Virus genome (UHGV): UHGV-1735583
Source: a virus
Length of the DNA stretch: 13,324 nt
Direction: 5' to 3' (one strand)
In this document: positions 9,001 to 13,324 of the stretch, one piece after another
Layout of the letters: every line of letters starts with the position of its first letter
Position numbering within the stretch: position 1 is the first letter of the stretch
Position numbers: made by a program

Positions 9001-12000
9001 CTGATGCAGTGATTTCCTGTGCCCGGTTACTCATCTCGTAAAAATCGCCACCCACACCTTCAGCAGTGGATTCATCAAAAATAATGCACTCATCAGAGAC
9101 GGCATTAAGTGTACCGGTTCGCAGTTCTTTCGCCTTAGCCGGATATTTTGCGCAAATTTTGCCGTGCTCTGAGATATGCAGGCGCTGCACCGTACCTGAA
9201 CGGAATGAGGTTGCCACCTGGATACTCGAGCCGTGACCAAACAGGATATAGCCACCGCTGGCTCCGCTACGACGTTCAACGATGGTGAATGAGGCTCTCA
9301 GCCAGTCAGGAAGATGATCAAACGGTACAGCAATTTTGGTGCGGAAAATTTCACTGGCAGCCTGTTTATCCTGAGCGACAATCCCGCATTTGAGATGCGG
9401 TATGAATAATGCCTGGTCGAGAAGATAAATATCAATGGCCGTGGAAAACCCCAGCTGGCGTGCTTTCAGGATAATATTTTTATTGTGCATGCTCCGGAAC
9501 AACTGGCGCTGCGCCGGTCGCATTCTGAAGGTGACCAGCTCACCTTTTTCGTTCTGTATTTTGTAGAGATGATTGAGGCGCCACCAGGGATTGCTCAGTT
9601 TTGTCATAATGAACAGACGTTGTTCGGTCTCAGTCATTTCTGCAGATTCATCACATCGCGGTTTATTCTTCCGGAATGTCATCCAGTCTCCCCGAATTAC
9701 TCATTTCATGCAGCGATGACACGATGTCACTGACAGGCGTAACAACGCCCCGACGCTGGCTGGTCAGAATATCGGTTTCCGCTCTGAGTTTATCTCTGGC
9801 GGCGTTGATTCTTTCCCGGTCAGCACGAAGTTTTGGTGCTGTTTCCGCCAGAACGTCCAGCGTCAGCAATGAGCGTTCAATTGACTCGATACGGGCAATA
9901 TTCCGGTCAAGGGCCTGTTCTGCTTTGAGTATTTTGTCGTACAGGGCAACACGGGTTTCCACGTCAGCCGCCTCTTTCAGGTCGGCGAACATTTTTTTCA
10001 GTGTTCCTGTTACTGAAAGTGCGCGGGCACGGGTGAACACCAGTTCATCGAACAGCACCATATCGGACGCATCATCCATGAGGTTATCTGCCTCAAGATA
10101 CTTCGCATATCCACGGTGTCTCACGGCGTGGGTGTTACGGTCGCTAAACCGGGCAACGGGGTGAGGATTACCCGATCTGCTGTTGCGTTTCGTTTCTGCC
10201 GAATTTGCGCAGTTTTTTTCAGAATTTTTTGCGCATTTTTCATCGTCGGAACCCGCGTCATTGCTGGGTTCTTCATCTGAGATGTCATGATCGATTTCAT
10301 GATCGGTTTTATGATCGATTTCATGATCGATTTTGCCCATTTTTATACGGGTTCTGGCGGTGTTGTAATTAATCTTTTTCTTACGGCACCACTCCAGTAA
10401 TGTTATTCCCGTTTCGGCATGTTCGCGTCGGAATGCCTGCTCCAGTTTTTTCCAGTCCAGCTTTGCCATGTCACTTTCTGACGTCCTCTGTTAAAAACTG
10501 ACGCATAATGACCGCTGTGATTTTTCAGAATTCACACAGCAGCGTCTTGTTTGATTGATATTTACACAATATGGTTGTTTTATCCGGTTTCTTCCACCAC
10601 CGCACCGGACAGGCGGCCATGCGGGAAAACGCTCACGTTACCTGAAAACGTGGAAAGCCCGGTGTGCATCGTTTTTGATTATCCCCACACACTCGCGCAG
10701 GAGGTCCAGTGTCTGGCTGAGGTCTCTGTTAATGCGGGAATACTGCGACGATACGGCGCATGGCTATGTCAGGCTGAAATGCCTTTATCAAATCCGGGTA
10801 ACGCAATCTGCCCCTGCTGCTCCAGCCTGTCCAGCCTTGCCAGCAACTGAGGCTTCTTCACCCTGCCCCAGCGATTGAGCAAACGACCTGACATACTGGC
10901 GACATCTTTCTCTTTCATGTACTCCAGCATTACAGCGTTGCGCTCCGCCTCCAGATTCGCCAGACCTTGCTGAATAAGCTCAGCCATCCAGTTGAAAGCC
11001 TGAATGTACGCTTCCTTAAAGGTCATAGCAGCTTTCCCCGTAAAACCAAATACCAACATCGTCCAACCGTCTTTTGTCATTCGATATATGGGCTGGGGTT
11101 TACCGTTCTGTAACTCATTGTTTTCATAGCAAAGCGCAAAATTGCGCTCTGCAAATTCTTTTGAGCATTGTTGAACAACGGCTCTTGTTTTCCGCAATAC
11201 ATCTTTGTGTTCTTTGCCAAATGCTACGGCAACCTTTCGGGTATCCGTCACCGGCTCGTTGCCTGTCACAAAAACAAGATCGCGGAAATCAATACCGTTA
11301 ACAATCGTCGGATAGTTCATAGCGTCTTACCTTTCAGAAAATTGAGCCTGTCTCACAGAAAAGCCGCCCCGAGATGGTCGCCACCATATACGGCAGTTCT
11401 CAGGCTCAACTTTCTGAAAGGCTCGGGGATGTGATATGCGCGTGAGATGCGCGATGAAATTCAGATATGAAAAAGCCAGCGATTAAGCTGGCTCTGTTAA
11501 TTCAGGCACTGAGTGCGGATATATTCCTGTGCCCCTTCCAGCTGCTTCTGCATTGTCATCAACCGTTCTCTGAGGATGAAATAATCCCGTTCAGCGGTGT
11601 CTGCCAGTCGGGGGCCGGTTGCATTATCCATGCCGGAGGTGCCGGTGGCTTCACGCACGGTACCGGAGCAGGTGGCGTTGATCCGCAGGCGCTTACGACC
11701 AGCAGCAACATCAGCACGCAGAGTTTCATTTTCAGCTCTCGCATCGGCTAATTCCCTCGAGTATTTTGCATCGAGCGCAGCAACATCGCGCTGGCGCACC
11801 TGCATATCAGTAATGGTGGCGTTTGCCAGCTCCAGCTCTCTGGCTTTTTTATCGCGCTGCGCTTTGTAGGTGATGGCGTTATCGCGGTAATGGTCTGTTG
11901 CCAGCCACAGCGCACCACAGCCACCCGCCAGGACAATAATCACCACACACAGAACACGGCTCATCTCTCTTTCACCCCACCAGTCCCGATAACGTCAGGA

Positions 12001-13324
12001 CTCGCCAGGCGGTGGAAAAGAAAATGGCAACCAGCATTAGTGAAAATGAAATGCCGACAATTACACAGAGGATCTTCGCCAGCGTTATGAGTTTGTCTGA
12101 CATGCTTAATCCTCCCTTCACGATTTCAACGCAATGACCAGTTTTGCCAGCCCATACAGCATCGGGGACACAGCAACACCGACCGCCACCCACTTAATGG
12201 CAAAAGCCAGTGCTCTGCTGATGTCATCAGTTACAGGCGCTTTCAGTTCAAGGCCGTTTTTCATAGTCAACCTCAACAGAATTCGTTTATACTTTTCCAT
12301 GTTCTCCCTTGCCTTATCCAAGGTCAGAAACACAAAACCCCGCTTGCAGCCAACAAACGGGGTTTTTACTTTTATTCACTTAGTTTTTGTCAGTTCGCAG
12401 GATTTCGTGTTATCCGTCCGTGTGAGCAAACCGCATTTTTCAGCAAAATATTCTGCTTATCTGTCAATTCCCCAGCACGCCAGCGCACTCTCCTGGTCGC
12501 GACGGGATACCTGACCGTAACAGTTGTTTGAGCGAATACGGCAGTCTCTGCCACCGTCCTTAATCCACCAGCGAATCGCTTCGCATGCTCCCCTGCGATC
12601 ACCAGCATTAATTCGTCTGTAAAACGTCGACGGGAAACACTTACCGGGACCAATGTTGTACGGACAGAATGACGCGATCCCCGCTTTCTGGGGTTCGGTC
12701 AGCGGCACTCTGATGTTTTTCTCCACCCACGCCAGCGCTTTATCACGCTCAATGGCGTTAACCTGGTCGCATTTTTCCTTCGACAACTTCATGCCCGGGA
12801 CGACAGGTTTGCCATCCACCATGATGGCACCTCGGCAGATGGTCCAGATACCCGCACCATCACGGTATGCCGTGGTGTGGTTACCTTCCTTTTCATCCAG
12901 AAACTGGTCGAGAATGTCAGGCGCAGATGCGCCTGCAGTAATCAGCGCCAGAATGGCAGTCGACAGGCCGTATCTGATTTTTGCGTTCATGGATATTTAT
13001 CAGGATTTATCGGTTCCGAATCCCTGGATATGTTAAGCCTTCACCCCGCCAGTGGTGGGCACTGGCCAGGGTATGTCAATCTGATAAACACAGAGGTGAC
13101 TATGGATTATCCAAATCTACCAAAACAAACTTTTGCTGATTTAATCGCACTCAGGCAAGCAGTCGTAGCTCTAATCAACGTGTTGCCGGATGAGGAAAAG
13201 GAATTAGTTAAAGCAATTCTTAACAGAACTGCCGCCGATTTTTCATCATTCCCACTGACAGATGACCTTGCGGACCTTCCTGAATTAATTGCAGCGTCCG
13301 CCATTAAGCTTACTGAAGAGATTT

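Follow-up and report, generated by a model that had tools for sequence, protein, structure and literature searches.

Introduction

Small inner-membrane proteins encoded in the lysis cassettes of lambdoid phages with a signal-arrest-release (SAR) endolysin have been described in the case of phage 21, where they are the S21 pinholin and the S21-71 antiholin (PF04971). In the present study, we analyzed two likewise very small open reading frames (ORFs), which we call orfA and orfB, in a cassette of this kind carried by the virus genome UHGV-1735583, based on a stretch of 13,324 nucleotides (nt) referred to below as the window. They lie between the gene of the SAR endolysin R and those of the spanins Rz and Rz1, behind a terminator-like hairpin, and are very probably real accessory micro-protein genes of the late operon, distinct from the holin.

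Small membrane proteins are also carried by phage morons, such as HK97 gp15, which is involved in superinfection exclusion, and lambda bor; in its classic form, a moron is preceded by a promoter of its own and followed by a terminator. Accessory membrane proteins of lysis have been described in two other phages. In Mu, which has no holin, the "releasin" gp25 (DUF2730) carries an N-terminal anchor and modulates the SAR endolysin without itself making holes (PMC9239132), and P1 encodes the accessory holin-like proteins LydC and LydD beside its SAR endolysin, holin and antiholin (PMC9025707).

The present locus resembles these systems in some respects and differs from them in others. The helix of orfA is weakly hydrophobic and rich in Gly, Ala and Ser, as is the second transmembrane domain (TMD2) of the pinholin, whereas unlike the PF04971 holins, orfA and orfB give no hidden Markov model (HMM) match, have one helix each instead of two, and are located after R and not before it. 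Contrary to what would be expected of a dedicated antiholin, orfA has no constant holin partner: it occurs with PF04971, PF16080 or PF05106 holins, or with no lysis genes nearby. The likeness to Mu gp25 is that both are small accessory proteins tethered to the membrane, with genes next to those of the spanins, but there is no sequence relationship (no Pfam match), and orfA is C-terminally anchored and coexists with a holin as well as with a soluble GH19 endolysin. LydC and LydD provide a precedent for extra membrane components in lysis systems, although no homology to orfA or orfB was found and the arrangement differs.

Conservation of orfA and orfB

On the minus strand, the genes occur in the order R, 14-pair hairpin, orfA, orfB and then Rz/Rz1 (Table 1). 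The original prediction, which was made on the window alone, had placed ORFs of 60 and 43 amino acids (aa) between the SAR endolysin and the spanins, after a hairpin, and this position was confirmed, as were the strong Shine-Dalgarno site and the single hydrophobic helix that it had assigned to each of them. The Shine-Dalgarno site of orfA is AAGGGAG (12310-12304), and that of orfB, AAGGGAGGA (12118-12110), overlaps the stop codon of orfA. Only 7 nt separate the orfB stop codon from the ATG of Rz (11964), the Shine-Dalgarno site of which (GGGGTGA) sits within the final codons of orfB. The best 19-residue Kyte-Doolittle window, which is the only hydrophobic stretch in either peptide, scores 1.88 in orfA (residues 38-56) and 2.87 in orfB (residues 11-29). 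In the AlphaFold model of orfA, a short basic helix (2-15) is followed by a loop and a long helix (22-59), and orfA is predicted to be a tail-anchored micro-protein with its C-terminal helix as the anchor, and orfB a single-pass membrane micro-protein.

Neither the size of the ORFs nor the hairpin is informative in itself: this 2.8-kb region contains 41 ORFs of at least 20 aa, and terminator-like sites are present at chance level (2 seen vs. 2.7 expected). orfA and orfB are judged to be real because they are conserved, not because of ORF size or hairpin score. The ratio of non-synonymous to synonymous polymorphism (pN/pS) amounts to 0.20 in the frame of orfA, the other two frames giving 0.87 and 3.86, and to 0.46 in the frame of orfB vs. 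0.61 and 1.27, while the variable sites are distributed over the first, second and third codon positions as 14/5/32 and 14/8/18, respectively. The conserved core of orfA covers residues 21-60, and orfA has residues which are invariant across Escherichia and Salmonella; orfB retains its length and start codon, as well as the Shine-Dalgarno site and the first 30 residues, down to 63% identity. Both peptides are matched over their whole length by PHROG HMMs (phrog_1115, 1.4e-42, in the case of orfA and phrog_4906, 2.5e-27, in that of orfB), and both are identical to RefSeq proteins which PGAP labels as hypothetical proteins. The pN/pS ratios and the codon-position bias are at odds with an absence of conservation, which the original prediction had named as an outcome that would count against it. 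Purifying selection clearly acts on orfA and less clearly on orfB, and on these comparative grounds both are shown to be genuine, widespread and selected genes.

It might be objected that the ORFs are translated spacers, the peptides having no function and translation merely carrying ribosomes across the insert and keeping Rz translationally coupled, as R keeps it in the insert-free phages. The fact that several unrelated families of tiny ORFs end 0-10 nt from the Rz start, the overlap between the Rz Shine-Dalgarno site and the final orfB codons, and the modest protein-level constraint on orfB would be in keeping with this explanation. We nevertheless regard it as improbable in view of the pN/pS of 0.20 and the invariant residues of orfA, the conservation of the N-terminal two-thirds of orfB, the existence of orfA relatives away from Rz, and the fact that a membrane helix is encoded by all the occupants of this position, although spacing alone would not call for one.

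The orfA gene has two in-frame starts, Met1 and Met13 (12264), each with a Shine-Dalgarno-like site (12262-12300, minus strand). The 12-residue basic N-terminal extension is kept in distant relatives, and many database entries begin at Met13. Two orfA products are possible, recalling the dual-start motifs of holins.

The holin

R matches the Pfam family Phage_lysozyme (3e-24) and is homologous to RrrD and to the structures of the phage 21 SAR endolysin 3HDE/3HDF (PDB 3HDE/3HDF/4ZPU, ~1e-16). Reading the sequence revealed the motif E35-x8-D44-x5-T50, and the N-terminal helix LSTAILALITAGASA is weakly hydrophobic (Kyte-Doolittle 1.54). According to the original prediction, no trigger for this endolysin is encoded upstream of R in the window. 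This is literally the case, but since the window includes no more than 334 nt ahead of R, the apparent lack of a holin is an edge effect, and relatives carry the holin gene S farther upstream. Whenever a relative has over ~1.25 kb of flanking sequence upstream of R, a class II holin S (Pfam PF04971) is encoded there; this was the case at 75 of the 80 orfA loci, 66 of the 80 orfB loci and 56 of the 65 loci sharing the final 46 nt of the window exactly, and the loci without S all end less than ~1.25 kb upstream of R. In these relatives, S is 71 aa long, shows an M1/M4 dual start and matches the Pfam model "Bacteriophage P21 holin S" (7e-33).

The exact source of the window was not among the complete E. 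coli genomes; the closest complete genome, which is 97.1% identical, carries, in this order, Stx2a, a SASA esterase, DUF1378, DUF826, a class II holin, lysozyme, orfA, orfB, Rz, Rha and terminase genes. Strain EC2, which is 100% identical over the cassette, has S, YdfR and R, as does the related phage PhiR12_1, where an antisense gene matching the right end of the window is located between YdfR and R. The same general picture, with a pinholin, a SAR endolysin and Rz/Rz1, emerges from a survey of Shiga toxin (Stx) phages (PMC8136144). The lysis trigger of the present phage is almost certainly an ordinary phage-21-type pinholin S encoded just beyond the end of the window. Since the phage almost certainly has a standard pinholin, the significance that a missing or atypical holin would have had falls away.

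These data bear directly on the proposal made in the original prediction that orfA and orfB might be an atypically placed pinholin/antiholin pair depolarizing the membrane for the SAR endolysin. Both are indeed small membrane peptides in a SAR-endolysin lysis cassette, orfA has the two starts described above, each with its Shine-Dalgarno-like site, and its helix shows a faint likeness to pinholin TMD2 (8 of the 16 aligned columns identical), a derivation from which was dismissed at an hhalign probability of 4%. However, all the sufficiently flanked relatives do encode a canonical holin in another part of the late operon, namely the PF04971 pinholin with its own dual-start antiholin upstream of R; each peptide has only one hydrophobic segment, and the holin HMMs were not matched, in agreement with the earlier remark that neither peptide resembles the S21 pinholin or lambda S. 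Furthermore, the two ORFs occur separately, and orfA is also associated with a lambda-type holin and a soluble endolysin and is present outside lysis cassettes. The pair hypothesis is largely refuted already and can be given hardly any credence.

Distribution and organization of the cassettes

Homologs of orfA were detected by megablast in 1560 of the 5426 complete E. coli genomes and those of orfB in 1256 of them, with up to 9 orfB copies per genome. The cassette region matches 319 phage records, most of which are those of Stx1/Stx2 phages carrying orfB only, directly before Rz; BP-4795, for example, shows the succession S, YdfR, R, ant, ORF50 (which is orfB) and Rz. At all the 75 loci where both could be placed, orfB is located 2-10 nt upstream of Rz and is preceded either by orfA or by an antirepressor gene (Ant). 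It was never found away from Rz, and its association with S-type cassettes is as constant as that with Rz.

The settings of orfA are more varied. In Salmonella prophages, it occurs without orfB in three settings. It follows a class II holin, lysozyme and antirepressor in the first, a PF05106 (lambda-S-type) holin together with a soluble GH19 endolysin that has no N-terminal membrane segment in the second, and a PF16080 holin in the third. More distant relatives are located at prophage ends, after tail-fibre/DUF4376 or SASA genes, once as tandem paralogues. Because of these varied settings, orfA is not tied to SAR endolysins, pinholins or lysis cassettes, and orfA and orfB are independent modules and not an obligate pair. 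At two Salmonella loci (L088, 2989-3201, and L090, 2805-3168), the orfA-family genes each stand behind their own terminator-like hairpin, and at the second of these loci, two tandem orfA paralogues precede a DUF1353 gene with which the prophage ends.

Comparison of the R-to-Rz junction across relatives, as the original prediction had proposed, showed that the insert is variable, with junctions ranging from 0 to ~1430 nt. R and Rz adjoin (0 or 32 nt) at 16 related loci, and since they are adjacent in these phages, the ~490 nt present here are an insertion. The 90-nt spacer following R is also kept where relatives have an antirepressor gene in place of the hairpin cassette. In CP-1639 and SPN3UB, the same hairpin and Shine-Dalgarno linker are followed by a different peptide, 45 aa long and ending in IRWW (phrog_6632), while the junction of PhiR5_1 (L002, 2940-3474) consists of an Ant-like 231-aa gene, a 31-aa peptide, orfB, a 5'-truncated 38-aa orfA and a 28-aa IRWW peptide, followed by Rz. 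The slot directly upstream of Rz is evidently a recombination hotspot occupied by interchangeable tiny membrane ORFs (orfB, orfA and 28-45-aa IRWW peptides) and sometimes by an antirepressor. A PhiR5_1-type arrangement has also given rise to fusions of orfB with orfA, which are represented by the database proteins P0094 and P0114.

Homology searches

No meaningful matches with orfA or orfB were obtained in Pfam, NCBIfam, PADLOC or a PDB sequence search. When 1.84 billion representative proteins were searched with a profile, this yielded only 20 relatives, all of which are tiny enterobacterial peptides, and linked no characterized family to orfA; it did join orfA to the peptides ending in IRWW via the common motifs MKNGLExDAP and AFAI(K/R). 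Based on HMM searches, orfA belongs to phrog_1115/4493/3246, orfB to phrog_4906 and the 45-aa IRWW peptides to phrog_6632; these families are all labeled "unknown function", so that membership indicates no mechanism.

Several other relationships were considered and rejected. orfB does not align with the membrane anchor of Rz, of which it might have been a duplicate, and orfA and orfB do not appear to be paralogues (hhalign probability ~4%). Protein P0120, which is encoded on a 554-nt ENA metagenome contig and in which the N-terminus of holin S is fused to the C-terminus of orfA, is a probable assembly or recombination chimera and was not used; the holin S part extends through SPSQW and is followed by the C-terminal orfA helix VAVGVAVSPMLYGLAKLVIALKS, the join coinciding exactly with the stretch in which the helices are alike.

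The hairpin and the transcription of the small ORFs

The 171-nt hairpin region folds at z = -3.2, and the pairing is kept by two-sided (compensatory) changes between the E. coli and Salmonella versions. The hairpin forms the conserved upstream edge of the small-ORF cassette, and other contexts hold a different hairpin at the same relative position. In view of the tracts present on both sides, it could act in either direction. No Rfam family matched the hairpin region; a match with the rimP leader was dismissed as being below threshold (27.5 bits vs. a cut-off of 47).

A consensus scan detected no sigma-70-like promoter on the minus strand between 10400 and 13324. A plus-strand promoter-like site (TAGTCA-18-TATACT, 12264-12293, a 9/12 match) is directed into the hairpin; promoter-like sites numbered 2 vs. 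2.6 in shuffled sequence. The RNA initiated there would be ~70 nt long and antisense to the orfA Shine-Dalgarno site and start codon. Another terminator-like hairpin (11474-11493, plus strand) is located between Rz and Rha, just past the Rz stop codon.

Whether these elements might constitute a type I toxin-antitoxin-like module, with orfA as the hydrophobic toxin and a plus-strand antisense RNA of ~70 nt extending from ~12300 to the hairpin, was also considered. The orientation of the promoter-like site, the T-run which the hairpin presents on the plus strand as well, and the fact that the RNA would cover the Shine-Dalgarno site and ATG of orfA are in line with this idea. The promoter match is at chance level, however, Rfam gave no family match, and the -35 hexamer is lost in a tail-fibre-context homolog, the DNA otherwise being too conserved to separate the hexamers from coding constraint. 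In addition, stand-alone type I loci differ from the present ORFs, which are embedded in an operon and have strong Shine-Dalgarno sites. A module of this kind is very unlikely.

The cassette resembles the morons in that it consists of extra DNA between genes which are adjacent in related phages, encodes small membrane products and has a mosaic distribution. It differs from them in its transcription signals: the hairpin is located upstream, nothing resembling a promoter was detected on the minus strand, and the ORFs lead straight on to Rz. The same features have to be weighed in the case of lysogenic-conversion or superinfection-exclusion cargo, made in the lysogen or in early infection and shielding the membrane from phage DNA or other insults in the manner of HK97 gp15. 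The insertion between neighboring genes, the presence of orfA relatives behind the tail-fibre/SASA genes at prophage ends, a classic place for cargo where they sometimes occur in tandem, and the wide occurrence of orfA in E. coli along with its good purifying selection are what one would expect of such cargo. It is less easily reconciled with the consensus scan, which found nothing promoter-like in the coding strand from R to orfA, with the absence of PADLOC matches, and with the fact that orfB never occurs away from Rz. Since the hairpin lies upstream and not downstream of the ORFs and the orfB-Rz gap is only 7 nt, a dedicated orfA/orfB transcript would moreover express the spanins too. All in all, cargo of this kind seems unlikely. 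The more general alternative put forward in the original prediction, that of an unrelated membrane-active cargo, is consistent with all the present findings.

A possible role in late membrane events

The overall explanation which fits best is that the independent micro-protein genes and the hairpin form a ~490-nt accessory cassette which is expressed late and inserted between R and Rz in a lambdoid prophage of the 933W/Stx2 type, and we would give it about an even chance of being correct. Because no promoter-like site was detected on the coding strand and the ORFs are preceded by the hairpin, orfA and orfB would be transcribed only by the Q-antiterminated late RNA polymerase. They would then be translated from their strong Shine-Dalgarno sites, packed onto Rz, and in view of this late transcription and this packing, insertion of the peptides into the inner membrane would coincide with lysis. 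Lysis itself would be triggered by the pinholin S, which orfA and orfB would not replace. What the peptides might do once in the membrane is a matter of speculation: they may possibly fine-tune late membrane events such as the time of holin triggering or the behavior of the i-spanin, and this suggestion is a tentative one.

A broader, and rather doubtful, suggestion is that the tiny membrane ORFs which invariably abut the i-spanin gene (orfB, orfA and the IRWW peptides, making at least three PHROG groups) might be a previously unrecognized fourth component of many lambdoid lysis cassettes, regulating the activity of the spanins or the timing of the holin. The timing of lysis governs toxin release in Stx-type phages, and if this were true, lysis timing, and hence Shiga toxin release, would be affected in most Stx phages. 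Whatever their role, the micro-proteins of this cassette are strictly placed and very common in Stx-type lysis cassettes, and are already catalogued yet functionally uncharacterized.

Several points weigh against the explanation of a late-expressed accessory cassette. The presence of orfA relatives beside tail-fibre genes indicates that a lysis context is not required, which weakens the lysis-tuning step in particular. The selection signal is weak in the case of orfB, where the in-frame value of 0.46 is near the off-frame value of 0.61 and 14 of the 17 unique coding sequences give different proteins. The promoter search was a simple consensus scan, which may miss weak or non-sigma-70 promoters, and the holin is deduced from relatives, the best of which among complete genomes is the 97.1% match mentioned above, the upstream DNA of the window itself being unseen. 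Lastly, no expression or phenotype data on orfA or orfB were found in the literature when it was searched by accession, PHROG id or topic.

Other features of the window

Table 1. Position of the lysis genes and associated features in the window of UHGV-1735583
Feature	Position	Strand	Characteristics
R	12990..12457	-	177 aa; SAR-type endolysin, phage 21 R / RrrD family
Non-coding spacer 3' of the R stop codon	12367..12456	-	90 nt; conserved in relatives
Terminator-like hairpin	12334..12366	-	14-pair stem, A- and T-tracts on either side
orfA	12118..12300	-	60 aa; ATG at 12300, stop codon 12120-12118; WP_021566721.1; phrog_1115
orfB	11972..12103	-	43 aa; ATG at 12103, stop codon 11974-11972; WP_001280930.1; phrog_4906
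Rz (i-spanin)	11497..11964	-	Pfam Phage_lysis 2e-49; phrog_13
Rz1 (o-spanin lipoprotein), inside Rz	11559..11744	-	Pfam Rz1 1.7e-21
Antisense-oriented gene, 5' part, running off the window end	13102..13324	+	"DUF1823 containing protein" in PhiR12_1

The 74-aa fragment of the antisense-oriented gene gave no Pfam match at E<=0.001. In the relatives, this gene is located between YdfR and R, with the holin gene S beyond, and in PhiR12_1 it overlaps the 3' end of YdfR. A gene in the opposite orientation inside a lysis cassette is likely to be separately transcribed cargo.

Between Rz and the terminase genes, the window also carries a Rha-family regulator gene with an ORF11CD3 domain (10769-11320, minus strand). 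The structural module (1276-10469, minus strand) includes a P22-like portal, a Phage_capsid_3 capsid protein and an SU10-type adaptor; in view of this module and the Stx2a-bearing closest relative, the phage is therefore a short-tailed one of the 933W/Stx2 type.

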